A stretch of 62,516 bases of DNA, taken from IMG/VR virus record IMGVR_UViG_3300023199_000083, positions 1 through 62,516 of that record; one strand, written 5' to 3'. This document shows positions 21,677 through 43,520 of this stretch, piece by piece. Both the position numbers and the translations under genes were made by a program. The number at the start of each line of letters is the position of its first letter. Position 1 is the stretch's first letter. The notes under the pieces are model-generated. The model was not told the DNA's origin, searched no databases, and saw only the letters and a list, made by a program, of their open reading frames with translations. Origin of the DNA: a virus. Its lineage: Duplodnaviria > Caudoviricetes.

Positions 21677-22189
21677 TCAGCCCCCCTTCACTATTCTGCG
21701 CATGGGATAGAACCGTCCCCGCGCCTTGTCCACGAACATGTTCATCCGGTCGATATGGATCGCCGACATTGTTTCCGCACTGGCATGTCCAGCCTTCTGC
21801 ACCTTGGCCACTTCGAATATCCGCTGCCCGGTCCGAATCAGTTCCAGCGCTTCGTCGTGCGACCGTTTCGCCTCGTCTCGCACTCGCTCGTATTCGTCCG
21901 ACCACGGCTTGCGAGCCCACAGCTTCCAGAACGCTACTCGGCACGTCAGGTCCGCCAAGTACGCTTGCGATTCGCCCGTCAGTTCTTCCAGGTCCTCGCG
22001 CGTGTACATGTTCGCCCGAAGCGTTGCGGCCACTACCTCGCCAGTCGCCGAGTCCAGGGCCGCCTTGATCTTGACGTTGTTGGACAGGTACTCTTCGGGG
22101 ATAAAGTTCCCGTCGTCCGCCACCAGGTTGCTCAATGTGCGGGCGTCGTAGCGGTTGATCAGGTCGGTTGCGGTTGCAAATGCTGCCAT
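21677..22189 (-). CDS. Head-tail adaptor (Mu gp36/DUF1320-like)
   Basis: FATATDLINRYD...IKAALDSATGEV...LTCRVAFWKL...ALELIRTG. Confidence 0.8.
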   Translation of the reverse strand: MAAFATATDLINRYDARTLSNLVADDGNFIPEEYLSNNVKIKAALDSATGEVVAATLRANMYTREDLEELTGESQAYLADLTCRVAFWKLWARKPWSDEYERVRDEAKRSHDEALELIRTGQRIFEVAKVQKAGHASAETMSAIHIDRMNMFVDKARGRFYPMRRIVKGG

Positions 22190-22284
22190 GGTCACTTTGT
22201 AGTAAAAAGACCGCTGCCGCACGGGGGCGCGACAGCGGTCCAGAGGCGGCGGCACCTCTCCAACACAGTTGGGGCTCCTGTCGC

Positions 22285-23346
22285 TTAGGCCGCGCTACTC
22301 GACGAACTCAACGGGTTCTTGATGAGTGCGCCGGCCAGCGGTGCCGTCAGGACCGGAGCGAAGTCGTCCACGACCCGAGTCCATTCCAAGCGGTTGTCCG
22401 TGTCGTGCTTGGATTCGACCGTCAGTTCTTCTTTCATAAACAGCGTGGCCGTCGAGAACGACGGGGCTCCGTCGATCCCTTCCAAGCCGCCGGGACGCGA
22501 CAGCATTAAAATCACATCGTCGCCCAGCACGTAGTTTTTCTGCACCGTCGAGGCACCTTTTCGCGTCGGTACCCGAACGGCATCTTCGACCACGATCCGG
22601 TAGTCGTACAGGGTTTCCGGGAAGCCGAACTGGGCGAGCGGGCCGAGGTTGCCCACCAACGTTTCTTTCGCCGCGGGCGATTGCTTTAAGTAGTCACGAA
22701 GTTCTTGCGTGACCGACAGCTGCCGAGCCACGGTAGGATTCATCACGACGACCAGCTGATGTCCCTTGACCGATCCGAGCGTTTGCAGCTTGATCTGGTC
22801 GGCCATGTGGTCCAGCGCTCGCTTGATGTCGGACCGATTCACCGTCGATTCGTCAAGGAACCCGGTCACGCCTTCGATATCGACCACGTCCTCCACGTGC
22901 CCGGTCGGATACGCCGACTCATTCAGCAGCACATTCAAGGTCCGCATCGTCCGCAACGTCATAGCCACCTGCGCGTTATGGCGCGACGCCTGGGCGAGTA
23001 GCGGCCAATCGGCCTGTTCCGGCGCTTCCTGCGGGTAGCTGTCCGTCGGCGCAAATCGCTGCGTCTTGTACGGCTTGAACTCGAACGACTCGCGATGACC
23101 CTTGCCGCTGGGCGCCGGGTCGCCATAGGGCCAGGCGTAATCGGCACCATCATCGGCCAGAACGCGGCCCGCCTGTTCGATCGTCATTTCAATGTAGAGG
23201 CCGACGTTTTTGTCGACCTTTACATACTGGACATAGCCGGGCAGCGCGAACTCGCGCGGGTTCCGGCTAAAGTCGATCACCAGGTTGTTTGTCGCGTCCG
23301 TATTCGGAACGAACGTGTTATAACCTGAAGGGAACATTTTCGGCAT
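22285..23346 (-). CDS. Major capsid protein
   Basis: 353 aa, after the scaffold and decoration genes; VVVMNP and GALIKN capsid-like motifs; ends SSSSSAA. Confidence 0.8.
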   Translation of the reverse strand: MPKMFPSGYNTFVPNTDATNNLVIDFSRNPREFALPGYVQYVKVDKNVGLYIEMTIEQAGRVLADDGADYAWPYGDPAPSGKGHRESFEFKPYKTQRFAPTDSYPQEAPEQADWPLLAQASRHNAQVAMTLRTMRTLNVLLNESAYPTGHVEDVVDIEGVTGFLDESTVNRSDIKRALDHMADQIKLQTLGSVKGHQLVVVMNPTVARQLSVTQELRDYLKQSPAAKETLVGNLGPLAQFGFPETLYDYRIVVEDAVRVPTRKGASTVQKNYVLGDDVILMLSRPGGLEGIDGAPSFSTATLFMKEELTVESKHDTDNRLEWTRVVDDFAPVLTAPLAGALIKNPLSSSSSAA

Positions 23347-23914: not shown

Positions 23915-25471
23915 TTACACCGCCCCGTTCTTCTCCGGAACAAACGTGTCCGTATCGTTTTCCAGCATGTGGCCGAGCACGTCTTTGTACTCGACGCTGT
24001 GGCCCTGCTCTCGCAGCCGAAGCGTCCGCTCACGCGCCGCTTTGCTGTACCGCTCACGCTTTTCGTCCGACACCTTGCGAGCGGGGATTTCGCTCTTGGC
24101 GTAGCGGGCGACGGCGCTAATCGCCGGACTTCCGACACGCTCGTACCGTACTCGAATCCGGTCCAGGTGCTTGTCGAACAACTCGTCCGTAAAGTCGCCG
24201 CAAAACTCCATTTCCTCGTCCGCGTCCAGCATGTAACCTTCTTGCGAGGACAGCTCGGTCAGCGCTGCGTGCCGTTTGGCGTACCGCGCCTTCCGCTGCT
24301 CTTCGACGTTCTGCTCCTTGATCTCATCCACGACCTTTTTCAAGTCGCGATGGTCACGCTCCAGCTTGGCGTACCGCGACTTGAGCTCATCGCGCTCTTT
24401 GCGGTACTTGTTCGCCGAACTCGGTTCCGGCTCTCTGCCCTCCTCTTCACCGAGCCAGTTTTCGAAACACTGTGCGTATTGGCGGCGAGTGGCGTCGTCT
24501 GCGTGGTGCTTCATGTATCGCTGCACTTGGCGCAAGTCGTCCTCGTCGAACTTCGCCATATAGTCGCGCGCACCATCGCAATCGAAGTCATCACCCTTGG
24601 CATACCGCTTCATAAAACGGGACGCGACGCCTTGCGGGAACGCCATGTCTTCGTCACCCAGCGGCGGGCCAACGTCAGGGATCGTCGGTTCGTTCATAAG
24701 ATCAGCTCCTTCGCCTGGCGGCTCGGGGGTTAAGTGGACATTCGATTCATCGATCCACGCCATGATCGACGGCTTAAGCGCTTCAAGCAACTGTTGCAGC
24801 TGCTCCGGCGTGAATCGGTCTTTACTCGGCTCCTTCGCCAACTGGTCCGGATGCGCCGGCTCATCGTCTCCGCCGACCAGGCCGGGGATGTGCGTATTCA
24901 TTCCCGACGCAAACGCGCCGTCCCATTGGTACCGCAGCTTCTCGACGCCTTCGGGAGGCTTCTTGCTGTATCGATGGTATCGGATTAAGCCCAGGTCCTG
25001 CCTCGGCGTCTGCGCGCCAAGCAGTGCGATCGGGTCAATCCATCGGTCTTCCGGCTTCTTTTCCGGCCAGATTTCGACGCTGCGCCGGGGCCGAGCCTTG
25101 AATATTTTGTGGTGGTCTTTGGGTATACGGAACCGGGCGAAGATGCACGGCTGCTTTGATCGCTTGCCGACCTTGCCCATACGGAACGGGCCAGCGTACC
25201 CGATAATCGGCGGGTCCTTATCCGGGTCCCCATCATCGCTCGTGTGCCATGCCACGATCGGCGTGTAATCGTCGGTGTCCTCGATCCGCCGGTTGTTATT
25301 CTCAGTGATCCGGGTCAACAGCTTTTCGTCGTAGTCCACACCGTCATCGTCGACATGCGCGCGAAGAACTGGCACGTCTTCGTAGACGTAAAATTCCTCG
25401 CCCGTTTCCGGGTCGACTTCCAGCCGCGGCGATCTCCGCTGACTGTCCTGTGTCTTGGTTGCTGTTTCCAT
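23915..25471 (-). CDS. Prohead protease/scaffold (Mu gpI-like)
   Basis: PIVAWH...IGYA...PRRSVEI...IALLGAQTP N-terminal domain; coiled-coil C-terminal half. Confidence 0.8.
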   Translation of the reverse strand: METATKTQDSQRRSPRLEVDPETGEEFYVYEDVPVLRAHVDDDGVDYDEKLLTRITENNNRRIEDTDDYTPIVAWHTSDDGDPDKDPPIIGYAGPFRMGKVGKRSKQPCIFARFRIPKDHHKIFKARPRRSVEIWPEKKPEDRWIDPIALLGAQTPRQDLGLIRYHRYSKKPPEGVEKLRYQWDGAFASGMNTHIPGLVGGDDEPAHPDQLAKEPSKDRFTPEQLQQLLEALKPSIMAWIDESNVHLTPEPPGEGADLMNEPTIPDVGPPLGDEDMAFPQGVASRFMKRYAKGDDFDCDGARDYMAKFDEDDLRQVQRYMKHHADDATRRQYAQCFENWLGEEEGREPEPSSANKYRKERDELKSRYAKLERDHRDLKKVVDEIKEQNVEEQRKARYAKRHAALTELSSQEGYMLDADEEMEFCGDFTDELFDKHLDRIRVRYERVGSPAISAVARYAKSEIPARKVSDEKRERYSKAARERTLRLREQGHSVEYKDVLGHMLENDTDTFVPEKNGAV

Positions 25472-25863: not shown

Positions 25864-26027
25864 TACCTGTCCCCCTGTCTCTCTGTCTCTAAATTTGCGA
25901 ATCCTGCCGCCACTATATCGAACACGTCCAGGTACGCATGTACCGCTTCCGCGCACGAGTTGGCGACCGCACCTTCAATCTCCGCCGGGTCAAACGAAAT
26001 GTCGGCTACACTCACGATCCGTGCTCC

Positions 26028-29000
26028 TTAGATCGTCCGCCCGAAGTCGCGACGCCCAAACGCCATCGAGTACGCTAAAAACGACGCGGCCAACACACCC
26101 GCCAATATGTACAGGTTCCGCCTGCCACCCACGGCATTGGCCAGCGCGTCGATGATCCCCACCTGTCTTTCGTCGCCGCTCTGCTGCATGTGCAGGATCG
26201 CATCCACGATCGCGTCCTGGTACTGGGACACGGCCGCATGGTTCCCGCGCACGATCTCGCGCTGGACATGGCTCGGCGGGATCGGCGGCTGCCAACCACC
26301 CGCCTTGGCGGTGTTCAGTATGTGCCGAACCGCGTAGTCCGCTTGCCGCACTTTATCCACCCCGGCGACCGGAGTGTGGCCAAGATCGGACGCCGCTGTC
26401 ACCAGGTCGTCCAGTCGCCCCATGTGTTCAGACAAATACTCGGCCGCGTCCAATGCCCGCTGATCGCCCGTCTCGCCCTTGGCATGGTATCCAAGCGAGT
26501 TGGCGACGTACTTGACGAATCGCTTCATCGCCACGGTATCGCCGTAGTCGCGTGCCGGGAGCCCGAACTCCGAAGCTATTTCGCTTATCCGCTCTTCTTC
26601 ATCCTGCATCTGGGCCTGTTGCTGGTCCAGTTGCTGCTGATACTCATCTAGCGTGTCTCCGGTGACGTGGCCGAAGTCCACCATCCGTTCTGACTGGACC
26701 TCTACGCCGTCCCGATTGCGCCAGAACTCCGGGCCATGCGGCGGGTAAAACACCTTCGTCCACTGGTCGTCGCCCGGCAGCACGGTCCCCGGATTCAGCC
26801 GGCCCAACTCTTGCACTAACTGCTGCTTACCACGCCCTGCTTGTGGCCGCTGCTCAGGATCTGTAGGCGGCATTTGTTCCGCCTCCATTTCAGGCCCCGG
26901 TTCCAGTCCTGGCTCCGTCGTCTCTTCTGCCGCTTTTTCCGGGAAGAAGTTTTCGACCAATGCGGTCAAGTCCTCGGCGAACTGCTGTACCGACTCCGCC
27001 TGCCGCTGTGCCTGCGCGCCCAGTTTCATCGCCTCCGCTATCGACCCGCGATCTTTATAGCCACGGTTCCAGGCCGCTTGCGCCATTTGTGCATGGCCTT
27101 CCCCTAGTTTTGATTCCATTCCGGGCCGATCGTTGTTACGCAAGTTGTCCATGACTCTATCCAGCGTGTACTGGTCGATGTCCTGGATGTTGTGCGTCCG
27201 GAGCCGAGCCGCTGCCCGAGCATCTTCCGCCGCTGTCTGTGGTTGGTCTGCTGTCTCTTCCGGATCAGGCTCCTCGCCTACTTCTGGTTCATGCTCCGGC
27301 TCTGCTTCAGCCACGGCGTCCGGCCCATCCTCTTCCGGCTCCTGGTCGGGAGGCAGTTCCTCTTCCTCCGCATCGATCGCTTCGGGAGTGCCACGAACCT
27401 GGGTAGCATCCGGTGCCCCTGCGCCTTCTATCATTGCCTTCTCTTCGTCGGAGAACTTCTCCCATTCCTCCTGTGGAATCCACTGGCCGCCGACATACGG
27501 CTTTCCGGCAAGGTATAGCGGATTGTCCGCCGTGTGGCCTTGCGGTGCGCGTCGCTGTTCGTACCGGATCGGCGATTGGGAACCGGCGCGGATAATCAAA
27601 CGCTGCTTGATGGCGGTCGCCAGCACGTACCGGTAGTGGTGCTTCATGCCCTGCCGCAACTGCTCCAGTGTGCGCTTTAATTCCTGGCTGATGTACGCCT
27701 TGGACACGCCACGCTCGGCGGCGATGTCCTTTTGTTGCTGCGGCCCTTCCTCTCGACGACGCCCAATTCCAAACGTGCGTTCTAAAAGGTCTCGCTTCTT
27801 TTCCGGCAGTTCGGACAGCAGGCCCTCCACTTGTTCCAGCGCCTCGACCGTCCCCGGGGCTTCGAACGGCTCTTGTGCATCGGGATCGGCGACGGTGCCC
27901 ATGTCCGGCGCGTCTTCTCCGGTCCCGCCGACACCACGGGCCACCCGCGTTTGCCTCGCTTCCGTGCGCAGTTCGTTCAGCATGTAGCCATTGATGTACT
28001 GTGACGCATAGGACTTAAACGGAACGCCACGGTTCGGATCGAATCGCTGGGCCGCGTCCCATAGCCCGATCATCCCGGCCGCCTCCAGCCAGTCGCGCTT
28101 CTCGCGGTCCCTGCCCGCCTTCCGGCTCGCGGCCGTGCGCACCATCGGCAAGTGTTCGTCGTACAGCTCCTGGGCGCGGTGGTACTGCTCCTCGTTCTCC
28201 ATCGCCTCTTCTACCGGATCGATCTCCGCCGGCCGAGTCTGGGGCGCCGGTCGCGGCTGGGGAGCGGGCGCCGGTTGCCGTGACTCTGGCCGAGCGGGCT
28301 GCCGTGGCGGCTCTTCACGTGGCGGCTGGGCCGGTTCCTGTTCGGCCGCTGCACCCGCCGCTGCATCTGGGGGCGTAGTAGCTGGTTTCGGATCAGTCTC
28401 TTTCCGCGGATGTAGCGGCTTCTGCCCGGTGCCGAAACTTGGCCCGGATTGGCCCTGTCCCTTCGGCGCGAACTGTCCGCCCTTGCTGCCGGGCGTCCCC
28501 TCCGGTTGGCGCGGGTGCTTGTCTTCGTCTTCTGTGCCCCAATCGAATGTGCGCTGCCTTTGTCCGGGCGCTGCGTACCGCTTCTTTCGCATCTGCTGCG
28601 GGCCGGGCTCTGGCGGCGGCTCACCGCCAGATTCACCGCCGCCAGATTCACCGCCGCCAGACTCACCGCCGGGCTCACCGACCGGAGTCTGCGGATTGAT
28701 CGGTCCGCCCGGACCCATGATCGGCCCGCCACCTTCTTCCGGGCCTGGAGGTGGCGGGTTCTCTGCCTCTTCGATCGCCATCCGGATTTGCGGATTGTAC
28801 AGAACTTCGTCGCCGTCCTGGGGAACGGACAGGCCCAGCTTGTCCATGATCTCGCTGCTTTTCAGCTTGCCGCCCATGTTCCAAAGTTGGCTGATTTCCT
28901 GCATCAAGTTCGGCGGGATACTGGTCTCGGTCTTGAGCCGGAAATAGAAGTCCGCGTTCCGATACTGCGGCATGTTGTAGTCCCGCAGCGGTGACACAAA

Positions 29001-30287
29001 CTCCCGAGTCATCGTTTCTTCTTGATTGGACGCATCGAATCGGACAATCTGCTTGAGGCTATCGTGGTGCAGTTCCGCCACGCCGGACCCGAGCCCTGTC
29101 CCGGCCGTCTTGCTCGACAATGTTTGGCCCAAGATGTATCGCGTGATCTGGTCTCCGAAGAAGTCGTCGACCAAGTGCTGCAGCGCTTGAATCCCGCCAG
29201 TGTTCGGTGGAATCTGCTCAATCGACGGCATGTTCGGCATCGCCGGATCATACGGGACCAGAATTATGTTCGTATTGGCCTGGTTCCGAGCCGCGTTCTC
29301 CATCTCTTTTTTGTATGGATCGTTTCCGGACGGGTAGTAGTAGACCGTGAATCCGATCCCGGTTCGCTCGACCACTTCGACGAGCTGGGCAAGCGTTTCT
29401 TGTTTCTGGTACCAGCTCCAGTACAGGAAGTTCCGCAGCCCGACGCCTTTGATCTGAGAGCCGGTTATCGGGTCTTCGTACTCGCCGTCTCGCACCATGT
29501 GTTTGTGAACGGTGATCTGTTTCCGCTCCCACCGCTCGAAGAACACCGCCGCGCCTTCAGGCGTGTAGGTCCACAACCGCTCGCCTGCGATCTTGTCGTC
29601 GTTCATCTTCAGAAGCGCCAGGCTGACTCGAACGCCCATCTGATCCGGGTCGAAATGCCCAGTCCCATCATCGTACCGCCAAATCAGCTTGTCTCCCGAT
29701 ATGGGCGTGTACTTGTCCACATAGATGGACCGGCGTCGATTCCGATCGATGTGGTAGGCGTACTCGTTGAACATCGCCACGCGACCGTACCAGATAGCCT
29801 CCGCAAGCCAGTTCCGGTACTGCGTAAAGTAGGGCGTCCGCTTGACGATCTTGGTTAGCGTATTCGCTGCCTCGACCAGTTCAGGGTCCTTTTCATCTTC
29901 CGGCTCGATGGACCAGTCGAGAAGTGCCACCATGCGCATACGGGCTTCGAGCGGCCCTTCGATCATAATGTCATTGCGCATCATGGCCGCGTTGGAGCGG
30001 CTGTGTCGGATCGCCTCGTCCGAGTTCCGATAGGTCTTGGCCAGCGTGCTGGTCAGGCCGGAGAACGTCATAATGTGCGGGACAGGAGGTCGTCCGGCAC
30101 CGGGCGGGATATCGTCGGTCACGCCGGTAGACGGGTCCCACGGCCGACTCGCTGCTTCGAGTTGACGGCGGTACCGAATCGGCGCACGGTCGCCCAGGTT
30201 GTACGTCCTGCCACCTGCGCGGAATCCGCCCGGATCATCGACCACGAAGGTATTATCCACCAGTGGCCGGGCTATTTGATCGGTCAT
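26028..30287 (-). CDS. Portal protein (Mu gp29/DUF935-like) fused to a sigma-70 module and an acidic C-terminal domain
   Basis: About aa 60-500 portal (EAIWYG, YILGQTLSS, GSGVAELH); sigma region 2 GMIGLWDAAQRFDPNRGVPFKSYA; region 4 LSELPEKKR...KDIAAERGVSKAYISQ. Confidence 0.88.
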   Translation of the reverse strand: MTDQIARPLVDNTFVVDDPGGFRAGGRTYNLGDRAPIRYRRQLEAASRPWDPSTGVTDDIPPGAGRPPVPHIMTFSGLTSTLAKTYRNSDEAIRHSRSNAAMMRNDIMIEGPLEARMRMVALLDWSIEPEDEKDPELVEAANTLTKIVKRTPYFTQYRNWLAEAIWYGRVAMFNEYAYHIDRNRRRSIYVDKYTPISGDKLIWRYDDGTGHFDPDQMGVRVSLALLKMNDDKIAGERLWTYTPEGAAVFFERWERKQITVHKHMVRDGEYEDPITGSQIKGVGLRNFLYWSWYQKQETLAQLVEVVERTGIGFTVYYYPSGNDPYKKEMENAARNQANTNIILVPYDPAMPNMPSIEQIPPNTGGIQALQHLVDDFFGDQITRYILGQTLSSKTAGTGLGSGVAELHHDSLKQIVRFDASNQEETMTREFVSPLRDYNMPQYRNADFYFRLKTETSIPPNLMQEISQLWNMGGKLKSSEIMDKLGLSVPQDGDEVLYNPQIRMAIEEAENPPPPGPEEGGGPIMGPGGPINPQTPVGEPGGESGGGESGGGESGGEPPPEPGPQQMRKKRYAAPGQRQRTFDWGTEDEDKHPRQPEGTPGSKGGQFAPKGQGQSGPSFGTGQKPLHPRKETDPKPATTPPDAAAGAAAEQEPAQPPREEPPRQPARPESRQPAPAPQPRPAPQTRPAEIDPVEEAMENEEQYHRAQELYDEHLPMVRTAASRKAGRDREKRDWLEAAGMIGLWDAAQRFDPNRGVPFKSYASQYINGYMLNELRTEARQTRVARGVGGTGEDAPDMGTVADPDAQEPFEAPGTVEALEQVEGLLSELPEKKRDLLERTFGIGRRREEGPQQQKDIAAERGVSKAYISQELKRTLEQLRQGMKHHYRYVLATAIKQRLIIRAGSQSPIRYEQRRAPQGHTADNPLYLAGKPYVGGQWIPQEEWEKFSDEEKAMIEGAGAPDATQVRGTPEAIDAEEEELPPDQEPEEDGPDAVAEAEPEHEPEVGEEPDPEETADQPQTAAEDARAAARLRTHNIQDIDQYTLDRVMDNLRNNDRPGMESKLGEGHAQMAQAAWNRGYKDRGSIAEAMKLGAQAQRQAESVQQFAEDLTALVENFFPEKAAEETTEPGLEPGPEMEAEQMPPTDPEQRPQAGRGKQQLVQELGRLNPGTVLPGDDQWTKVFYPPHGPEFWRNRDGVEVQSERMVDFGHVTGDTLDEYQQQLDQQQAQMQDEEERISEIASEFGLPARDYGDTVAMKRFVKYVANSLGYHAKGETGDQRALDAAEYLSEHMGRLDDLVTAASDLGHTPVAGVDKVRQADYAVRHILNTAKAGGWQPPIPPSHVQREIVRGNHAAVSQYQDAIVDAILHMQQSGDERQVGIIDALANAVGGRRNLYILAGVLAASFLAYSMAFGRRDFGRTI

Positions 30288-30352
30288 TTAATTGCTCACA
30301 CAAACCGCTGTCACGCTGTCATTCCACCCGGCGTGCGTTGAAGATTGGCCGC

Positions 30353-31372
30353 CTACCAATATCTCCATCTCGTATCAACTGTCGTCGGCTGCTCTGCCGC
30401 GCGCCGCTCTTCCCCAATACCCGGAAGCGTAGACCGAACCGCCTTCCGTCGCCCCCATCCGACGGTCGGTACGGTTCGCACTCGGAACCCATCTCTGGAC
30501 GCCTTCCGTGGCACGTAAATGGAATCGCCCACCACGCTCGGCGCAACCAGGATGTACGGCACCTGATGCTCCCATAGGCTACCACAGACTCGGAGCCGGT
30601 GCCATACGAACTCCCCCTTGCTCCGCGCCGACTTCATGTCCTCGTAGACGCTCGCCGGGACCGGACGTGCCTTCGAGCCGTAAGCGTAGATCGGGCCTTT
30701 GATGTGCGACCGGTGCCCCATCTGATACGACTCGCCCGAGCAACTGTTAACGCGCGGCGTGTATTTTATGTTCGCTCCCGGTGCCTTGTACGCGACGTAC
30801 AGGATGCCTTCCTTGTGATCGTATCCGAACCCCCAGACGTTGCTTGACTGGGGCGTTTCGATCATATTCGCGAACACGTCCGCTTCCGAGCCGTCATCGA
30901 TATGCGGCGCGGCGATTGTGGGCAGAATCCGCACGTCCTCGCGTGCGTCGTCCTCGACCCCCGGCGGGTAGCCTGTATGGGGCCGCACTCGCTCTCCGGG
31001 CGCGCCAACTGGACGCGGCTGGCTCACGGTCGGTACGTCAGCATGTCCGGGCTGCGGAGGCATCCCTGGGTACCACGGCTGATCTTCCGGACGCGGGGGC
31101 TGTGGATCCAGTTCGGGAGGGTCCGGGTAGCTGACCGGATACCGATCGGCACCCCCCGGCTCGACTCGGAACCCGGACCGCATCAGCAGATCGATCGCGT
31201 TGCGGATGTCGCCTCGGGTCGGCCTCTGGCCCAGCGCGAACACGTCGACCAGCGTTCCGAGCAGTTCTCCGACAGGCCCGTACAGAGAGCCCAGCGCTCG
31301 GCCCACGCGGCGACCGCGACTTTGGATGACCTCCTCGATCACCCGCTCTTGTTCTTCGCGAGTTAGGGCCAT
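30353..31372 (-). CDS. KTSC-domain protein
   Basis: SSNVWGFGYD...LYVAY...YAY...VPASVYEDMKSARSKGEFV. Confidence 0.75.
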   Translation of the reverse strand: MALTREEQERVIEEVIQSRGRRVGRALGSLYGPVGELLGTLVDVFALGQRPTRGDIRNAIDLLMRSGFRVEPGGADRYPVSYPDPPELDPQPPRPEDQPWYPGMPPQPGHADVPTVSQPRPVGAPGERVRPHTGYPPGVEDDAREDVRILPTIAAPHIDDGSEADVFANMIETPQSSNVWGFGYDHKEGILYVAYKAPGANIKYTPRVNSCSGESYQMGHRSHIKGPIYAYGSKARPVPASVYEDMKSARSKGEFVWHRLRVCGSLWEHQVPYILVAPSVVGDSIYVPRKASRDGFRVRTVPTVGWGRRKAVRSTLPGIGEERRAAEQPTTVDTRWRYW

Positions 31373-34465: not shown

Positions 34466-34550
34466 AACAATGCGATGCAACGGATCCGCGTTTATCGTCT
34501 TTCATAATGGTTAATCTTTTCTCCGGCCCCGGTTACGCGGGACGTTCTAC
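34462..34550 (-). repeat. attC-like site M4
   Basis: GTAGAAC...GTTATGC (minus); arms only partly matched. Confidence 0.75.
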
Positions 34551-34870
34551 GGCTCGATCGATCGCACCGCTGAAGCGATTGCAGCCGCGGCCGTCAATGT
34601 CCCGTTCACCTTGTCCAATGACTGACGACACTCACGGAGCATCACGGCAGCTTTCGGCAACCCTTGCCGGTTCGCGTCCACGATCAGATGTTCCAGAATG
34701 TCCTGCATCAAGTAAATCAACCGTTCCTCTTGCCCCACAGTTCGCGGATCGGTCACAAGTGATCCGTGATCGTTTCTCGCGTAGAGCAAGTCTGCAATCC
34801 GATGAATCGCCGTAGAACCATCGCATGCACGGGAGCCGTCGTCCACGTCGGTTTTTGAATCCATGTCCAT
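34547..34870 (-). CDS. Cassette protein (start inside the attC loop)
   Basis: GGAGAG-ATG in the M3 loop; stop overlaps M4. Confidence 0.65.
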   Translation of the reverse strand: MDMDSKTDVDDGSRACDGSTAIHRIADLLYARNDHGSLVTDPRTVGQEERLIYLMQDILEHLIVDANRQGLPKAAVMLRECRQSLDKVNGTLTAAAAIASAVRSIEP

Positions 34871-34901
34871 CTCTCCGGCCCCGTGATGCGGGGCGTTATC
34901 C
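34812..34901 (-). repeat. attC-like site M3
   Basis: GGATAAC-GCCCCGCATCACGGGGCCG...CGGCTCCCGTGCATGCGATG-GTTCTAC. Confidence 0.85.
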
Positions 34902-34903
34902 AG

Positions 34904-35161
34904 CTATTCACACTGGCATTCTTCTACTGCCTTTTCGCATTGTCCGCAGCGAGAGACTCGCCATCGCCCAACCGCGATCAATTCGTTTGCTTCTGCACAC
35001 GATTCAGCCGTGGGGCATGTCGCGTGCAAATACTGATTCGGGTTCCGTCCGTCGTTTTCGCTCATCGGCCGCACTGTGCTAATCGTATCGCCACGCCTGC
35101 ACCACCGCTGGATAACAAGCGGATCAACCGGAGTTGCCGACGACGCTGTTTTTGTATGCAT
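34904..35161 (-). CDS. Cassette protein (start inside the attC loop)
   Basis: GGGAGAG-ATT-ATG in the M2 loop. Confidence 0.6.
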   Translation of the reverse strand: MHTKTASSATPVDPLVIQRWCRRGDTISTVRPMSENDGRNPNQYLHATCPTAESCAEANELIAVGRWRVSRCGQCEKAVEECQCE

Positions 35162-35200
35162 AATCTCTCCCGGCAACCCGGTTATCCTTGGACGTTATCT
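35110..35200 (-). repeat. attC-like site M2
   Basis: AGATAAC...GGATAACCGGGTTGCCG...CGGCAACTCCGGTTGATCC...GTTATCC. Confidence 0.88.
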
Positions 35201-35470
35201 GGATGATTCCCGCTTAGCTTTGATTCGTCGCATTGCCTCACGTTGCATCCGTTTCGGTTCCTTACACGCTTCCCAGTCGCCGGACATCTCATCGACGTAC
35301 AGCATATTGGTCGGCCCAAATCTGACAACGAGCCGCTTCGGCGGTCCTGCGCGGTCGTATGACTCTTGACCTACCAACACGACAACCGGCTTATCCAGCC
35401 TCAACAGTCCTGTCGGTGTTGGGCACTTCTCATCAGGCAAAAACCAGTACCAACCGGGTCGCTTCGGCAT
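35195..35470 (-). CDS. Cassette protein (PxxPGWYW motif)
   Basis: MPKRPGWYWF; TAA stop lies within AGATAAC. Confidence 0.7.
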   Translation of the reverse strand: MPKRPGWYWFLPDEKCPTPTGLLRLDKPVVVLVGQESYDRAGPPKRLVVRFGPTNMLYVDEMSGDWEACKEPKRMQREAMRRIKAKRESSR

Positions 35471-35478
35471 ACGTCACC

Positions 35479-35570
35479 AGATAACAATCACATGCACTCA
35501 AAGCCGCGAAGACGTGCTCGTGCAAAATGGTCAATCAACCGTCGAGACCCGGTAAACACAAACGTTATCC
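35479..35570 (-). repeat. attC-like site M1 (chimeric arms)
   Basis: GGATAAC...GTTATCT (minus). Confidence 0.7.
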
Positions 35571-35762
35571 GCCAGGATTCACCACGGAACGCACTGCCGC
35601 ATCTTTGGCTTCCAACAGTTGTCGCAACGATACGGTCCTTTCGGGGCCGCCGTCGATCGTTTCGACGATAGTTGCCGCAAGGTCGTGGAACGGCTTCGAC
35701 ACGCCTTGCAGATGTTCCGGCAAATGACCGTACTCAAACCACTTCATCATTCGCTCTTCCAT
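35565..35762 (-). CDS. Small helical-hairpin protein, possibly an Acb2/Tad1-like sponge
   Basis: FEYGHLPEHLQGVSKPF..LA...GPERTVSLRQLLEAKDAAVR; AAGGAG RBS. Confidence 0.6.
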   Translation of the reverse strand: MEERMMKWFEYGHLPEHLQGVSKPFHDLAATIVETIDGGPERTVSLRQLLEAKDAAVRSVVNPGG

Positions 35763-36069
35763 TTCCAACTCCTTCACTGAAGTGTCCACCAGTTGCCACA
35801 GCGCCACGAACGAGTCGCCGAGCGGAAAAAAATACATGTGCCGGCTGGTCACGTAAAACGGATAACAAAGCGATGAACGACGAGCCACCACCGCCCTCGT
35901 GATTCGACGCGGGTTCGTCGTAGATCGCTGTTTGATTGCTCATCGTTTTTCTTTCGTGGCCCGTGGCCGGGTTATCGCAGACGCTATTTGATTCACAAAA
36001 GCCCCTTGCGGGAACCGATCCCGCTCCTCCGGTCGACCCGGTACTGCACATCCTGTTGGCTCGCTACTC

Positions 36070-38395: not shown

Positions 38396-38941
38396 ATGAC
38401 CGACATTTATTTTCAGGCCGACGATTTTTCTACGGTATCCCTCGACGGGGGATACCGGATGTGGCGACGCAACGAGGGCCAGGTCGCGTCATTTGGCGGC
38501 TACCACGCCCGCGGCAAGATCGTGGGCGGCGAGCATTGGACCGGCCGCGACATCGCGACCGGCGGCATGGGCAACAGCGGTGTGCGGGTGATCGTTCCGG
38601 TGAGCCGCGAGGCTCGCGCGCTCGTGCGGATGCACGTCACCGAGTGCTGGGTCAATCGGTACGGCATCTCGTACAGAGAGTCCGATGCCTTGTACGCGCA
38701 CCGCGGCCCGTACAAATACGAGCTGATCGCGGACATCTGCGCCGCGATCAATGACGAGGCGTGCCACGATGCGTTCTTGCGATTCCCCGGCGTTGGGCCG
38801 GGACTGCACCACGACTGGTGCGCTCGATGGGGCGACGTGGTTGCCCCATATCTTACCCGTTCATGGCCCCGCAACGAGGCCTTGATTGAGGCGGTGAATC
38901 ACGTGATTCGCGCAACGTCGCGTGAGTTCCAGTCCGCCTAA
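38396..38941 (+). CDS. Hypothetical protein
   Basis: Follows the promoter; TAA lies within GCCTAAC. Confidence 0.7.
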   Translation: MTDIYFQADDFSTVSLDGGYRMWRRNEGQVASFGGYHARGKIVGGEHWTGRDIATGGMGNSGVRVIVPVSREARALVRMHVTECWVNRYGISYRESDALYAHRGPYKYELIADICAAINDEACHDAFLRFPGVGPGLHHDWCARWGDVVAPYLTRSWPRNEALIEAVNHVIRATSREFQSA

Positions 38942-39044
38942 CGCTTGGGATCAACGGGCACCGACGAAAAAGGTTTGAACTACGGAAGATTCATGGAACT
39001 ACAAAACAACGCCACCGGTGCTCCGTTGCATCCCATTGTTACTA
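38936..39044 (+). repeat. attC-like site P2
   Basis: GCCTAAC..TGGGATCAACGGGCACCG...CGGTGCTCCGTTGCATCCCATT-GTTACTA. Confidence 0.9.
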
Positions 39045-39712
39045 TGCCGTTCGCCCCGTATTACGACGAGGACGGGATTACGATCTACAACGCGGATTGC
39101 CGGAAAGTGCTGCCGTGGCTGGCGAGGGTTGACGTATTGCTGACCGATCCACCATACGGCATCGGTGCAGCGTCCGAGACGTTTACGCGCAAAGGAAAAC
39201 AGACCGGAAAATCGTTGGCGGTGAGTGGCGTGAATTACGAGCCAAGCAAATGGGACAGCGAACCGCCACCGCGTTGGTTTCTCGATGCCGCGCAAGAGTG
39301 TGCGGAAACGTCGATACTGTGGGGCGGGAATTATTACGGGTTGCCGTCGTCGTCGTGTTGGTTGGTGTGGGACAAGGACAACGGCGAAAACCTGTACGCG
39401 GATTGCGAGTTGGCGTGGACGAACATGCAGCGGGCGGTGCGGAAATTTAAGTGGAAGTGGCACGGCATGTTGCAGGAGAACATGGGCGACAAGAAAGAGC
39501 ATCGAGTTCACCCGACGCAAAAGCCGTTGGCGTTGATGCGGTGGTGTTTGTCGTTGGTTCCAGATGCGGAAACAGTGTTAGACCCGTTCGCGGGCAGCGG
39601 CACCACGTTGGTGGCCGCAAGGTTAGAAGGCCGCAAGGCTATTGGGATCGAGATCAGCGAGAAGTATTGCGAGTCGGCGGCAAACCGGCTGGCACAACGG
39701 ACGTTGTTCTAG
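39044..39712 (+). CDS. DNA N4/N6 methyltransferase (beta class)
   Basis: LTDPPYG...HPTQKP...VLDPFAGSGTT...GIEI; alternative start at 38993 in the attC loop. Confidence 0.95.
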   Translation: MPFAPYYDEDGITIYNADCRKVLPWLARVDVLLTDPPYGIGAASETFTRKGKQTGKSLAVSGVNYEPSKWDSEPPPRWFLDAAQECAETSILWGGNYYGLPSSSCWLVWDKDNGENLYADCELAWTNMQRAVRKFKWKWHGMLQENMGDKKEHRVHPTQKPLALMRWCLSLVPDAETVLDPFAGSGTTLVAARLEGRKAIGIEISEKYCESAANRLAQRTLF

Positions 39713-39716
39713 GTCA

Positions 39717-39809
39717 TGGTAACGCTGGCCGTCACCGGGCGGCGGGAGAAAATTATGACTACAAAAAAAACGCAGCTACCGCCGCTCCGTGTTCACGCAA
39801 TTGTTATGC
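39717..39809 (+). repeat. attC-like site P3
   Basis: TGGTAAC...GGGCGGCGG...CCGCCGCTCC...GTTATGC. Confidence 0.85.
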
Positions 39810-40126
39810 GCCCCGGTCCCGGCTGGAAACACGTTACAGGGCCAGTGTGGGACCACGTAAGCGGAGTGCGATTGCACATGAGCGGACTGGTTCGGTTGCC
39901 GGATGGCAACACTGTGTCGGCCAACCAGTGTCCGCAATCGAAGTCCGCCGACCGTGCCGTGCGAATTGCCGGAAGCCGTCGCCGTGGACTGATGGTGTGG
40001 GCGCTGTGGTGCCTCGATCATCGTTGCAAGTTTGACGAGGTGTACTATGGCCATCAGTGCAATGTCTGTGGATTGTTTTTCGCGCACGGCTGCGCCCCGT
40101 GGGATGCCGTGCCTGAGTACGCATAA
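39755..40126 (+). CDS. Cassette protein (start inside the attC loop)
   Basis: GGGAGA-AAATT-ATG. Confidence 0.65.
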   Translation: MTTKKTQLPPLRVHAIVMRPGPGWKHVTGPVWDHVSGVRLHMSGLVRLPDGNTVSANQCPQSKSADRAVRIAGSRRRGLMVWALWCLDHRCKFDEVYYGHQCNVCGLFFAHGCAPWDAVPEYA

Positions 40127-40210
40127 CGCCTAAATTCACCGGGCCGCCCCCGGTGATCGTTGAATTGAGAACCCGCGCCGGGGGCGGCCCGGTGCAATTT
40201 TTGGTTATCC
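40121..40210 (+). repeat. attC-like site P4
   Basis: GCATAAC..AAATTCACCGGGCCGCCCCCGG...CCGGGGGCGGCCCGGTGCAATTT..GTTATCC. Confidence 0.92.
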
Positions 40211-40237
40211 GCTGTTTGCGGGGCCGCGAAAGGAAAG

Positions 40238-40528
40238 ATGGACATGTTTATCGCGTATCAGAAGTGGCAAAATCCGAGCTACATGAGTGGGCCGCGCTAC
40301 TCGCGCCGAGTTTACGGCACAGGAGAGACGGAGCAAGAAGCGCTTTTTTTCGCGACCCACTACCGGCGCAATGGTGAGTGGTGGACGTATGGGTCTGGGA
40401 GTGGACACCCCAACGCCTCAGACTTGAGCGTCGAGGAAGTGGACGACGACGAAGTGGACGACGACGAAGTGGACGTCGAGGAAGTGGACGACTACGACTA
40501 CGACGACGAAGTGGACGACTACGAATGA
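40238..40528 (+). CDS. Cassette protein with an acidic EVDDD-repeat tail
   Basis: AAGGA RBS; 15-nt GAAGTGGACGACGAC repeats. Confidence 0.7.
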   Translation: MDMFIAYQKWQNPSYMSGPRYSRRVYGTGETEQEALFFATHYRRNGEWWTYGSGSGHPNASDLSVEEVDDDEVDDDEVDVEEVDDYDYDDEVDDYE

Positions 40529-40589
40529 TCCGCCATTTTTCCGTTGCCGTGTCCCGTGTCTTCGGATGCGGGGCGCGGCGCGGTTTGGC

Positions 40590-40680
40590 GGATAACGCTA
40601 CCCGTAACCGGGCCGCGAGGGTTGAGCCGACCACGCGAGAACGCCCGCAATCGCGGCTCCGGTGCAATTTTTTGTTATGC
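40590..40680 (+). repeat. attC-like site P5 (chimeric)
   Basis: GGATAAC...GTTATGC; left arm as P6, right arm as P4. Confidence 0.85.
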
Positions 40681-41183
40681 GGAATGGGTTTGCAGGTCAC
40701 GAAAACACAACGGCCAACCATCACGATTGGATTACGCCGCGCCACATCGTTGAAGCGTTGGGGCCGTTTAATCTGGACCCGTGCCAATCGTTGAATCAAC
40801 CGTGGAAGTGTGCCGAAAGTGGATTTACGGTCAATGATGATGGGTTGTCGAAATTGTGGCGGGGCGTTGTGTGGATGAATCCACCATACGGCAGGGCGAT
40901 CGAGAAATGGATGCGACGGCTTGCCGAGCACGGGAACGGAATCGGGTTGATGTTTGCGAGAACCGATACGCGGTGGTTTCAGGATCACTGCCAGCATCAC
41001 GCGGGCATGCTGTTCCTGCGTGGTCGTGTTCGGTTTCACGATGGAAACGGCAACCAGTTCGACAGGAAGGGCGGCGGGGCGTGTGCAACGTCGCCAAGTG
41101 TGTTGGTCGCGTTCGGTGACGAGTGCGGGCAACGATTGATTGCTTGCGGTTTGGACGGCTTACGGGTCGTGCCTTCCGCATAA
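40677..41183 (+). CDS. Phage N6-adenine DNA methyltransferase (Dam-like)
   Basis: WITP..IVEALGPFNLDPC...DGL...VWMNPPYG...ARTDTRWFQ...FLRGRVRF. Confidence 0.92.
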   Translation: MRNGFAGHENTTANHHDWITPRHIVEALGPFNLDPCQSLNQPWKCAESGFTVNDDGLSKLWRGVVWMNPPYGRAIEKWMRRLAEHGNGIGLMFARTDTRWFQDHCQHHAGMLFLRGRVRFHDGNGNQFDRKGGGACATSPSVLVAFGDECGQRLIACGLDGLRVVPSA

Positions 41184-41269
41184 CGCTACCCGTAACCGGG
41201 CGGCGACGAGAAACATTGATTTGCGATTCACGCGGCCATCGCCGCTCCGTGTGCATCGGGTTGTTATAC
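41178..41269 (+). repeat. attC-like site P6
   Basis: GCATAAC..ACCCG..GGGCGGCGA...TCGCCGCTCC..CGGGTT-GTTATAC. Confidence 0.88.
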
Positions 41270-41287
41270 GGCGGCGGATCTTGGGAG

Positions 41288-41512
41288 ATGAAAATGAGTC
41301 AGTACTATCACGCTGGCGCGATGGACGAAAATAACGATGTGCTGTGGAGCGATCATACCCGCCGTTCCGCGGCGGCAGCGGAACGGGAAGCGTTAGAGAT
41401 GGCCCGCAAAACTGGCAGGAGAGCAATAGTGGAAACGTGGGACCGCTTGCACGGGCTACGCCCAGGAGACGCCAATGCGGTCAATGATGCGTACATGGTT
41501 GAGTCCGTATAA
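41288..41512 (+). CDS. Cassette hypothetical protein
   Basis: GGGAG RBS; TAA lies within GTATAAC. Confidence 0.65.
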   Translation: MKMSQYYHAGAMDENNDVLWSDHTRRSAAAAEREALEMARKTGRRAIVETWDRLHGLRPGDANAVNDAYMVESV

Positions 41513-41615
41513 CGTCAGCGATCAGCGGGGCCGGGGAGCAACCAAAGAGGTAAACCATGCGTGAAGATTCAGAACAGCCGGAAGATTTCGGCTCCGTTGC
41601 ATCGCATTGTTCGTC
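41507..41615 (+). repeat. attC-like site P7
   Basis: GTATAAC..GCGATCAGCGGGGCCG...CGGCTCCGTTGCATCGCATT-GTTCGTC. Confidence 0.9.
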
Positions 41616-41796
41616 GGCTCAATCTGTGCAGCGATGTCGCATACAGTCGGACACGCGATACGGTGCGGTTCACCGTCTCGGGCGGTTGGGGACCGAGACA
41701 GACTGCGGATTGAATATAAGCGACGGTGGCTGGTGGGTTTTGGGCAATGAATTAAAACACGCAGTTACATGTCGAGCATGCTTGAAAGTTCGATGA
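41557..41796 (+). CDS. Cassette protein (H...CG...CxxC; start inside the attC loop)
   Basis: GAGG-TAAACC-ATG in the P7 loop. Confidence 0.65.
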   Translation: MREDSEQPEDFGSVASHCSSAQSVQRCRIQSDTRYGAVHRLGRLGTETDCGLNISDGGWWVLGNELKHAVTCRACLKVR

Positions 41797-41896
41797 ACGT
41801 CAAGGATAACCGAGCGGAGATTAAACGTGGAAAACCAAGAGACTCAAAGGGCAACCGAGACGGACAATTCCGCTTCGGTTCATCCGTTTGTTATCT
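41792..41896 (+). repeat. attC-like site P8
   Basis: GATGAAC..GGATAACCGAGCGGA...TCCGCTTCGGTTCATCC..GTTATCT. Confidence 0.9.
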
Positions 41897-42021
41897 GGCA
41901 ATGTCGTTGCGGCTGGATGGTGGAAGATGTCTGTTACCAACAGGCACGAATAGATTTCGAATGTCCGAAATGCCACGATCGCAAGTTCAGCGAATTTCTG
42001 CGTCGAAATTTAGCCAGATAA
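41827..42021 (+). CDS. Cassette zinc-ribbon protein (start inside the attC loop)
   Basis: GGAG-ATTAAAC-GTG; CRCG...CPKC. Confidence 0.65.
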   Translation: MENQETQRATETDNSASVHPFVIWQCRCGWMVEDVCYQQARIDFECPKCHDRKFSEFLRRNLAR

Positions 42022-42113
42022 CGGTTTGATTAACCGGCTCGATGGGCGAGCCGGACGTTGACTTACTACAAAACCTGACCGCCCATCGAGTCCGGTTCAA
42101 TCAATTGTTCGCA
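42016..42113 (+). repeat. attC-like site P9
   Basis: AGATAAC..TTGATTAACCGGCTCGATGGGCG...CGCCCATCGAGTCCGGTTCAATCAATT-GTTCGCA. Confidence 0.92.
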
Positions 42114-42121
42114 GGTGAATC

Positions 42122-42442
42122 ATGGTTGACGCAGCCACGAAAAAACGAGTTACGCAACAGCACGTAGACGCGATCGCAGCAAATTCCGGCCCGGTATATG
42201 GCATCCGCTTGATTCGCAGTTTGCCGATCGGCACATCAGGAATGACGCAGGCGATGCCGGGGCGTGATGATCTTGCGAAAGTTCGTGACGTCAGCGAGAG
42301 AACGGCAGCCGGTTATGAGGTGCTGTTGAGCCACTATCGTCAGCAGCAAGATGAGGTCAAGCGATTGACGGCGTTGATACGCAATGTCATTGCAGGCCGG
42401 TGGAGCGTGACAGATCTACAGGAAGCAATCGGGGACGTGTAG
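42122..42442 (+). CDS. Cassette hypothetical protein
   Basis: AGGTG RBS after P9. Confidence 0.65.
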   Translation: MVDAATKKRVTQQHVDAIAANSGPVYGIRLIRSLPIGTSGMTQAMPGRDDLAKVRDVSERTAAGYEVLLSHYRQQQDEVKRLTALIRNVIAGRWSVTDLQEAIGDV

Positions 42443-42607
42443 TTCTTGCGAACAAGAAGTATACAGGCGTCTGTATAAAACGGTGGATTGATATGGATAA
42501 CGACCAAGTTGACCGGGCCGATTGCTAAGGAGAAAAGGTGAACAGTAAAAAAATCTTTGACAGTTCGGGTGAGCCGGCCAGAAATTAACAATCGAAGGGA
42601 AACGAAA

Positions 42608-42838
42608 ATGACGACCGCAACGAAAATTTACCGAGGGATGATCGAGACGCCCGCATTGCCCCGACTGCGCGAAATCGCCAAGGAGTGCGGCGGCGAGGTC
42701 GAGGAGATGCGCGATTTCACGAACGTCTGGCCAAACCGCAATACCGATCCTGGTACGCGACACCGACGATTAGGCCGCACCCTGGTGGCGCAGGGCTGGG
42801 ACGGCAACGTGCTGTACGGTGTGACCTGCTGGGATTGA
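42608..42838 (+). CDS. Hypothetical protein
   Basis: AAGGGA RBS. Confidence 0.6.
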   Translation: MTTATKIYRGMIETPALPRLREIAKECGGEVEEMRDFTNVWPNRNTDPGTRHRRLGRTLVAQGWDGNVLYGVTCWD

Positions 42839-42849
42839 GGAGCCGAGAC

Positions 42850-43044
42850 GTGGCGAAGAAAAAGCGAGGACGAGGCCGGCCGGCGACGGGCAAGACACCC
42901 GTCCGCCAGTTGGGCCGGATCGACGATGAGAAGTGGAGATTGATCGTCCGCGCGGCGGAACTGTGCGGGCAGTCGATCACCGAGTTTTGTATGGAAACGC
43001 TGGTCAGACGTGCCAAGCGTGTCATCCGTGACCGTGACGGATAA
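42850..43044 (+). CDS. Ribbon-helix-helix-like regulator
   Basis: GRGRPATGKTP..LGRIDDEKW..IVRAAELCGQSITEF. Confidence 0.65.
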   Translation: MAKKKRGRGRPATGKTPVRQLGRIDDEKWRLIVRAAELCGQSITEFCMETLVRRAKRVIRDRDG

Positions 43045-43130
43045 CGCTTGGGATAACCGAGTGGCGACGAAAGATTTTACCAGTGGATTGACGCGGACTT
43101 CGCGGCTCCGTGTTCACCGCTTTGTTATGC
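43039..43130 (+). repeat. attC-like site P11
   Basis: GGATAAC...GTTATGC; imperfect arms. Confidence 0.75.
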
Positions 43131-43148
43131 GGCGAATGGAGTGATCTC

Positions 43149-43385
43149 ATGACCCCGAATTGCATCCTCTTCGTGCGAGACGGGCTACTCTCGTTTCGTA
43201 GGAACACTCAGACGCTTCCGCAGGGCGCTGTGCCCCTCGAATACGATTGCACAAATCTGGCACACCGCGAGGTACGTAGAGTCGCGGAAGATTGGAACTG
43301 GGAGTGGTGTGGTAACTCCTACCCCGCACGTCTGCCGATCGCCCCCGATACATGCGAGAGGGCGGTTGGCGTCGATACCATGTAG
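43149..43385 (+). CDS. Cassette hypothetical protein
   Basis: GGAG RBS after P11. Confidence 0.6.
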   Translation: MTPNCILFVRDGLLSFRRNTQTLPQGAVPLEYDCTNLAHREVRRVAEDWNWEWCGNSYPARLPIAPDTCERAVGVDTM

Positions 43386-43434
43386 AGCCACATAACTAAG
43401 ATTGGATGTTCACGAAACGGATTTCGTGAAGATC

Positions 43435-43520
43435 GCATAACGTCCGCGATAACGCGGCCGAGGGAAACTATGAGCAAATCAGAAAGCGTTGACGGCTCGC
43501 GTTCATCGCCGTTGTTATGT
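43435..43520 (+). repeat. attC-like site P12
   Basis: GCATAAC..GCGATAACGCGGCCG...CGGCTCGCGTTCATCGCC..GTTATGT. Confidence 0.88.

Follow-up and report, generated by a model that had tools for sequence, protein, structure and literature searches.

Architecture and continuity of the portal–sigma reading frame

The window analysed here is the complete record, with terminal repeats, of a virus of the Caudoviricetes (IMG/VR record IMGVR_UViG_3300023199_000083; 62,516 bp). On its minus strand, at positions 26028 to 30287, lies an open reading frame (ORF) that encodes a Mu-type portal protein fused to a sigma-70-family factor. The gene had been noticed from the sequence alone. The original prediction, which did not give the strand, proposed that the portal loads the sigma factor into the capsid for injection with the DNA. 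The ORF listing and translation confirmed one uninterrupted, ATG-started frame of 1419 amino acids (aa), in which portal, linker, sigma and C-terminal parts follow one another (Table 1).

The N-terminal part had been described as a DUF935-like portal of about 500 aa; we take DUF935 to be the Pfam family Portal_Mu. This family (PF06074) matched residues 101–486 of the protein (P0001) over profile positions 6–336 of 336, with an E-value of 1.1e-36 and 127.3 bits against a cut-off of 23.9. The portal family phrog_113 of the PHROGs database was matched as well. BLAST similarity to homologous portals covered residues 10–511, where 30 homologues showed 29–60% identity. Among INPHARED phages, just distant Pseudomonas-phage portals were found (24.7% identity over residues 226–498), and none covered 80% of the query. 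The expected Pro/Gly linker was located at residues 512–695 (184 residues, 23% Pro and 17% Gly). The acidic domain and the terminal hydrophobic helix were also recovered. Residues 946–1010 (65 residues) contain 29% Glu and 11% Asp and carry a net charge of −24, and the most hydrophobic 19-residue Kyte–Doolittle window of the entire protein begins at residue 1392. A portal, a sigma factor and two conserved modules are joined in one 1419-aa chain, in the manner of polyvalent proteins.

The continuity of the fusion was judged on assembled contigs rather than raw reads, from four runs (X1–X4) of one study. For each of X1–X3, which may be the source samples of the genome, a single contig of 12.3–12.9 kb covers positions 25900–30400 with 0 differences. 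Run X4 comes from a different sample. Its 2143-nt contig covers 27413–29555, including the portal–linker and sigma–downstream junctions, and differs from the window by two substitutions (one synonymous, the other Gly520Val in the linker) and no indel. The 90% protein cluster includes a further full-length protein of 1419 aa, which stems from a different contig and is identical at 1418 of 1419 positions. The GC content at third codon positions (GC3) of the ORF is 0.72, similar to that of adjacent genes. Neither a stop nor a frameshift was found in the four per-sample assemblies or in the second 1419-aa variant; the fusion is real and continuous.

The sigma part had been placed at 27640–28190, in agreement with the regions 2 and 4 located here. 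Sigma70_r2 (PF04542) matched residues 708–778 with an E-value of 2.3e-11 and 43.7 bits against a cut-off of 24. In a six-frame search of the genome this domain scored 49.3 bits and was the sole Sigma70_r2 match. Sigma70_r4 (PF04545) matched residues 823–879 (E 4.2e-5) at 23.4 bits, 0.7 under the Pfam cut-off of 24.1. The family phrog_351, annotated as RNA polymerase sigma factor, spans residues 706–883 (E 6.2e-26). A phmmer search of PDB sequences at E ≤ 0.01 returned 51 distinct chains, every one named as a sigma factor, including RpoS, SigA, FliA, WhiG, RpoD, HrdB and SigB. The label FliA/SigF-like, given in the original prediction, held only in part: the best PDB matches include RpoS and SigA as well as FliA and WhiG, and no Sigma70_r3 match was found in P0001 by Pfam at E up to 1. 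Regions 2 and 4 are separated by a connector of 45 residues, which AlphaFold2 predicted to be disordered. Judged by these matches, the architecture is of the minimal sigma2–sigma4 type and lies outside the FliA/sigma-28 group.

When 1.84 billion representatives were searched with the sigma segment, 5674 proteins were found at E ≤ 1e-3, with no close relative among them. The best free-standing relative is 35% identical (E 6.5e-14), and the top matches are mostly two-domain proteins of about 180–220 aa. In an alignment with 49 relatives, the nearly invariant positions of both sigma domains were kept in P0001, among them the G, L, A, D, F and A positions of region 2. The AlphaFold2 model of the segment has a predicted local distance difference test score (pLDDT) of 85.6 and consists of two helical domains with a confident helix-turn-helix in region 4. 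All 50 matches listed by Foldseek against PDB were sigma chains or sigma-containing complexes, with a probability of 1.00. Their template-modelling (TM) scores were low (0.27–0.33) because the two sigma domains are placed differently. Taken segment by segment, profile searches bear out the portal assignment, and profile searches with structure prediction the sigma assignment. A complex prediction of sigma domain 2 (alignment residues 15–110) with beta-prime 215–350 from a Planctomycetaceae metagenome-assembled genome (MAG; L177), made without controls, scored 0.18 against a mark of 0.32 and counts neither for nor against binding. A word-index homologue search with residues 696–890 returned the query only; this method misses relatives that HMMER finds. 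As a separate observation, four of the sigma matches, sigma factors with two or three domains (P0055, P0065, P0110 and P0115), carry a C-terminal HicB antitoxin-like domain.

To place the sigma within the chain, P0001 was compared with P0002, the homologue nearest to it (60% identical in the portal). The two proteins have in common residues 10–511, 906–1149 and 1160–1404 of P0001. The linker and sigma, residues 512–905, have no counterpart in P0002, and the sigma thus resembles a cassette that was added within the cargo region of a portal fusion.

Cargo of related portals and other head-associated proteins

A search for proteins of similar length yielded 30 homologues of 876–2378 aa, all with an N-terminal Portal_Mu domain and long, unrelated C-terminal extensions. 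In six of them the cargo has Pfam names: ART-PolyVal, S-AdoMet_lyase, ADPrib_exo_Tox, DUF5661, LPD3, LPD1, Zeta_toxin and NUDIX. InPase is also among the cargo domains at related loci, where it occurs in the sigma cargo protein of locus L013. We then surveyed 121 loci from IMG/VR and GTDB, in which 100 portal ORFs are complete. The extra C-terminal part comprises at least 200 residues in 48 of these 100 and at least 800 in 16, and is shorter than 100 residues in 45. Among the 45 unfused portals, 25 have an ORF of 500 aa or more within the next 1.2 kb. The survey of cargo on homologous portals that had been suggested with the prediction therefore revealed a habit of the whole family, including the effector domains of polyvalent proteins. 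P0001 itself contains none of the polyvalent hallmark domains (LPD, ART-PolyVal, InPase and the like) according to Pfam.

Both cargo segments of P0001 had been said to open with a related motif. The motif in the linker, HPR...GGQF, belongs to a family-wide pattern, HPRxxxGx[FW]. We counted 27 copies of it in 34 proteins, all located behind the portal domain; shuffles predict 0.86 (maximum 5). Of 48 fused extensions, 23 carry the pattern, as do 13 of 41 ORFs located behind unfused portals; its place is often close to the N-terminus. The second motif (..GKPYVGGQW) does not itself contain HPR in P0001, but the homologous blocks in L004 and L005 start with HPR, so it is fair to call the two motifs related. 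By jackhmmer, the block at residues 906–989 has relatives in P0002, P0004, P0006, P0009, L023, L026, L064, L065, L004 and L005.

The C-terminal end of the protein also recurs. Residues ~1140–1335 with the hydrophobic helix and basic tail are found at the ends of the portal fusions P0002, P0004, P0006, L002 and L003, and the module stands in separate ORFs behind the portal in L004, L005, L006 and L039. Five of seven aligned modules end in a hydrophobic stretch and a basic tail. The AlphaFold2 model is helical, with moderate confidence (pLDDT 69.7). No Pfam family was matched at E up to 1 in any of the seven members, Foldseek gave no match at E ≤ 0.001 in PDB or BFVD, and for residues 1150–1419 the ESM Atlas gave no usable match. 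The word-index search with residues 900–1419 again returned the query only, with the same limitation of that method. A membrane-inserting role in ejection would be a guess.

Sigma factors were found in other head-associated carriers. At L013, the gene immediately behind an unfused portal of 553 aa encodes a 1577-aa protein that combines Sigma70_r2, Sigma70_r4 and InPase. At L002, a 1530-aa portal fusion that has no sigma has as its immediate downstream neighbour a 1034-aa protein bearing regions 2 and 4. In the 524-aa protein of L015, an HPR motif stands at the N-terminus and, according to Pfam, a sigma at the end. The 432-aa ORF after the L013 sigma cargo is homologous to the 518-aa gene of the window (31% identity, E 1.6e-36). 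The order portal, sigma cargo, 518-aa/432-aa gene is consequently common to both, split in L013 and fused in the phage of the window.

Sigma domains are also carried by proteins of the Phage_Mu_F (MuF) family. A domain scan covered 14 of the 150 best sigma matches, the longer ones; P0085, P0148, P0155 and P0174 (345–388 aa) and all shorter matches lay outside it. Three of the 14 combine sigma and MuF in one protein. P0137 (718 aa) is a sigma fused to MuF, P0139 (2883 aa) contains MuF, sigma, a 2'-5' RNA-ligase-like domain, peptidase C39 and HNH, and P0160 (1964 aa) contains MuF, sigma, PT-HINT and topoisomerase IB. Among 79 IMG/VR loci related to P0137, the sigma lies within the MuF ORF in three (L178–L180, two of them identical).

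Genome context and candidate promoters

Table 1. Positions of the portal–sigma ORF, its parts, and other features of the window and of related loci.
Feature	Position	Strand	Basis or remark
Whole ORF, 1419 aa (P0001)	26028..30287	-	portal, linker, sigma, conserved C-terminal modules
Portal_Mu domain, residues 101-486	28830..29987	-	Pfam PF06074, 127.3 bits
Pro/Gly/Glu-rich linker, residues 512-695	28203..28754	-	composition; holds HPR...GGQF motif at 28470-28517
Two-domain sigma-70-family factor, residues 696-885	27633..28202	-	Pfam and PHROG matches
Sigma region 2	27954-28166	-	Sigma70_r2, residues 708-778
Sigma region 4	27651-27821 (by arithmetic)	-	Sigma70_r4, residues 823-879
Conserved block starting the second cargo part, residues 906-989	27321..27572	-	jackhmmer; ..GKPYVGGQW.. 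at 27474-27551
Acidic low-complexity stretch, residues 946-1010	27258..27452	-	composition
Conserved helical C-terminal module, residues 1150-1390	26118..26840	-	homology to other cargo
C-terminal hydrophobic helix, residues 1391-1413, then basic residues	26049..26117	-	Kyte-Doolittle
518-aa head-module gene, unassigned family	23915..25471	-	31% identity, E 1.6e-36, to L013 432-aa ORF
Major head protein	22285..23346	-	phrog_1005, E 1.8e-9
Mu gp36-like head-tail adaptor	21677..22255	-	phrog_195; PF07030 23.9 bits vs cut-off 24.7
Large terminase	5114-7123		in the window
23-bp motif, four to five copies	34528..35987	-	upstream of small genes
23-bp motif, eleven copies	38938..43457	+	upstream of small genes
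Arc-like repressor gene	42685-43044		in motif region
TTAACC-N16-TATATT sites	11224, 31406, 36070, 37092, 38329, 44344, 53622		sigma-70-like class
C-terminal module as separate gene	L004 15072-15965; L005 20002-20970; L006 17008-18162		in related loci
Free-standing sigma-like ORFs of L181	4813-5460 and 9113-9835		one each side of MuF gene

The portal–sigma gene sits in the late structural block, with the major head protein and the gp36-like adaptor downstream on the same strand. The 518-aa gene of this block gave no Pfam or PHROG match. A terminator-like hairpin on the minus strand (25488–25520, 14-bp stem, T-rich tail) stands before the 518-aa gene; upstream of it lie the portal-fusion gene and then a 111-aa ORF. 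The hairpin suggests a transcriptional boundary within the head module.

Distant from the head genes, at 57991–58932 on the plus strand, a subtilase-family serine protease is encoded (Peptidase_S8, E 3.4e-36; phrog_3677). It is the only protease recognised in the phage genome and could be a candidate for cargo processing. A 1269-aa ORF at 48736–52545 (minus strand) has primase or helicase-loader-like, helicase and PhoH-like matches and is followed by a ParB-like gene at 52573–53529. The T7-type RNA polymerase family PF00940 had no match in the phage genome, which shows little because the control genomes were equally silent. As for the host, 34 of 42 GTDB loci with related portals are from MAGs with planctomycete labels (Thermogutta, Schlesneria and Fuerstiella belong to this group), and the host of the phage is therefore probably a planctomycete.

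The genome was also searched for candidate promoters. The 23-bp motif CGnATAACG-N7-TnACCGGG yielded 20 matches when up to three mismatches were allowed; shuffles yielded 3.95 ± 1.79 (9 at most). With up to two mismatches, 13 of 14 matches fall between 34.5 and 43.5 kb. At least 15 copies lie upstream of small genes and are co-oriented with two divergent gene arms, and good copies precede purine-rich ribosome-binding-like tracts and start codons. None of these copies precedes a structural gene. The copies at 40592 and 41180 are identical over 21 nt. PHROG results for ten ORFs of the motif region gave two named products (a DNA methyltransferase and an Arc-like repressor), seven unmatched ORFs and one ORF matching families of unknown function. 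An exact scan of IMG/VR for the motif gave 53 contigs with one match each, about chance level, and no second multi-copy phage. The motif is a candidate phage-specific promoter or operator class, which the portal-borne sigma might recognise.

Three other assignments were tried and dropped. Box 2 of the motif, taken as a −35 element, has no consistent −10 at 16–18 nt, and start codons are too close. Box 1 and its flank, faintly like the sigma-28 −10 consensus, have an extra base and no matching −35, and this likeness was not used as evidence. The 8-mer GCCGAGCA, which seemed to be enriched in intergenic sequence, lies mostly inside likely coding sequence and has no common flanks. In the motif region, a stretch of about 1 kb at 40127–41122 has no convincing ORF (GC3 of its sole long frame, 0.53) and contains three copies of the motif. 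A GC-rich hairpin at 40175–40195 is flanked by an inverted pair of motif-like sites.

A second class of sites resembles sigma-70 promoters. TTAACC-N16-TATATT was matched seven times against 0.90 ± 1.04 expected, and the class marks operon starts near 36.1, 37.1, 38.3, 44.3 and 53.6 kb. Near-identical copies of about 55 nt occur at 38326 and 44341, each followed by a leader and a start codon.

Proposed delivery of the sigma factor and comparison with known systems

We propose that the ORF encodes a polyvalent portal, in which the N-terminal 510 residues would form a Mu-type portal and the rest would be cargo on its C-terminus. In solved portal structures the C-terminus points into the capsid interior, so up to 12 copies of the sigma and of the tail-anchored helical module could be held in each particle. 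Release from the portal would occur within the flexible Pro/Gly linkers, perhaps close to the recurrent HPRxxxGxF motifs, after which the cargo would exit with the DNA by way of the portal and tail channel. Once inside its new host, which is probably a planctomycete, the sigma would refold, bind the host core RNA polymerase and direct it to phage-specific promoters, for which the 23-bp motif at no fewer than 15 small genes is the candidate. We infer packaging, release, ejection, polymerase binding and promoter choice, with the inward-facing portal C-terminus and the published prediction for polyvalent proteins as footing, and consider the full mechanism evenly balanced between right and wrong.

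The comparative evidence makes delivery as cargo the best reading of the locus. It would explain why the sole sigma of the phage forms part of a late structural protein and why the sigma is placed between the portal and the modules that relatives keep on the portal. It would also account for the recurrence of sigma in MuF proteins and portal-adjacent giants, and for a private motif at accessory rather than late genes. The original prediction is thus partly supported. Its anatomy is right and the comparison favours cargo; presence of the sigma in the virion and redirection of transcription before phage genes are expressed may follow.

Several observations weigh against delivery. No sigma was found in the same ORF as the portal in any of 120 other portal ORFs, when a sigma profile built from 99 matches was run against all six-frame ORFs of the portal loci, and precomputed Pfam annotation gave none in the 30 long portal homologues. 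Mutual identity among four sigma domains (window, L013, L002 and L015) is only 24–28%; they are not one conserved cargo. Free-standing sigma-like ORFs adjoin MuF in 7 of the 79 loci (L181, L221, L224, L228, L233, L238 and L239), and for this reason some fusions may reflect gene adjacency alone. Region 4 falls slightly short of its Pfam cut-off. Because the portal remains behind in the capsid, delivery would require the cargo to be severed from it; neither a prohead protease nor a cleavage site for the cargo was identified in the phage, and release is consequently the weakest link. The 23-bp motif does not have −35/−10 geometry. It contains two direct TAAC(C)G repeats, its boxes are too close for a −35/−10 pair, and an Arc-like repressor gene is present, so it may be an operator. 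Finally, because host-type promoter-like sites stand at operon starts, the phage can probably start on host sigma. A delivered sigma would then probably add a private promoter class and be dispensable for starting infection.

The free ORFs beside MuF genes would be expected of late regulators, and together with the location of the gene in the late structural block they fit a different explanation: that the fusion only co-expresses its parts, and that the sigma is cleaved off or internally started and acts in the same infection, unpackaged in functional form. Met 696 opens the sigma part with a GAGG-like tract before it, and the phage encodes the S8 subtilase. That tract, however, is just 2 nt from the ATG, which is poor spacing, and the 23-bp motif stands at small accessory genes and not at structural genes. 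Furthermore, a sigma between the portal and the portal-fused modules would enter the prohead too unless cut first, and related extensions bear effector domains typical of injected polyvalent proteins. We find this explanation unlikely.

Still less probable, in our view, is that a sigma-like domain is packaged and has no role in initiation, either binding DNA in the head, for instance to keep a genome end at the portal, or sequestering host core polymerase after ejection and so shutting off host transcription. SPP1 gp7 binds DNA. This MuF protein is a portal-associated head protein according to the available text of PMC5512222, and it could serve as a precedent. The sub-threshold region 4, the host-type promoter-like sites for phage genes and the failure to tie any promoter of canonical −35/−10 spacing to the sigma would also agree with such a role. 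On the other side, the nearly invariant sigma residues are kept in both domains, both are predicted to fold confidently, and the structural neighbours among the matches listed are all bona fide sigma factors or complexes. An artefact or recent accident, in which misassembly or a lost stop joined separate portal and cargo genes, is highly improbable: the split form at L013 and the use of contigs from one study would allow it, but four assemblies agree without indels, the one-residue variant retains 1419 aa, 48 of 100 related portals carry long extensions, and the GC3 of the ORF is like that of its neighbours.

Returning to the sigma as delivered cargo, a wider reading can be put forward tentatively, as possible though doubtful. 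Virion-delivered sigma factors, borne on the portal, on portal-adjacent proteins (L013, L002, L015) or on MuF (P0137, P0139, P0160, L180), would be a general, unrecognised strategy. As part of it, up to 12 copies in this phage would switch host polymerase to the 23-bp class before at least 15 early accessory genes, so that the early programme would depend in part on a protein from the preceding infection. The portal C-terminus would then be a loading dock for regulatory proteins. If delivery as cargo is wrong, the locus is still a clear case of free module shuffling onto the portal in this phage group. The case is testable: the sigma spans some 190 residues, the candidate promoters are known at single-base resolution, and the split and fused relatives are natural controls. 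Planctomycetota, the likely host group, have few studied phages.

Portal-fused cargo is already a known kind of protein. For polyvalent proteins, in which portal or MuF is fused to effector domains, packaging and injection along with the DNA have been predicted (Iyer et al. 2017, PMC5512222, available text). The homologues of P0001 resemble them in bearing LPD1, LPD3 and ART-PolyVal, as does the L013 sigma cargo with InPase. In contrast, P0001 lacks these hallmarks and has a sigma factor as its recognisable cargo, and no embedded processing peptidase was found in it. The word 'sigma' occurs 0 times in the main text of PMC5512222 (supplements outside this count), and in the open-access literature, supplements aside, we found no packaged or injected sigma and no sigma in polyvalent, MuF or portal proteins; a sigma as portal-fused cargo appears not to have been described there. 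Phage Mu offers the structural parallel: its portal gp29 resembles the N-terminal 510 residues of P0001, and the head module contains a gp36-like adaptor. P0001 differs from Mu-type portals by about 900 extra residues, whereas its unfused relative at L013 is just 553 aa long.

Phage-encoded sigma factors that redirect host core polymerase are described, including phrog_351 and those of group 2 jumbo phages (PMC7824862, available text). They are free-standing and expressed after infection, unlike the sigma of P0001, which is an internal domain of a structural protein. The virion RNA polymerases of N4-like and phiKZ-like phages are made late, carried in the capsid and transcribe early genes of the next infection (PMC4496689, PMC13282480, available texts). 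They are free internal proteins, whereas here the specificity subunit alone would be carried, within the portal polypeptide, and the host core enzyme would be used. T4 Alt is packaged in the head, injected with the DNA and reprograms host RNA polymerase (PMC5512222, available text). Alt is an ADP-ribosyltransferase that modifies the polymerase; unlike P0001, it has no sigma and is not joined to the portal. If true, sigma-only delivery would be a third and far cheaper route to seize host transcription at time zero, beside the N4/phiKZ polymerases and Alt.

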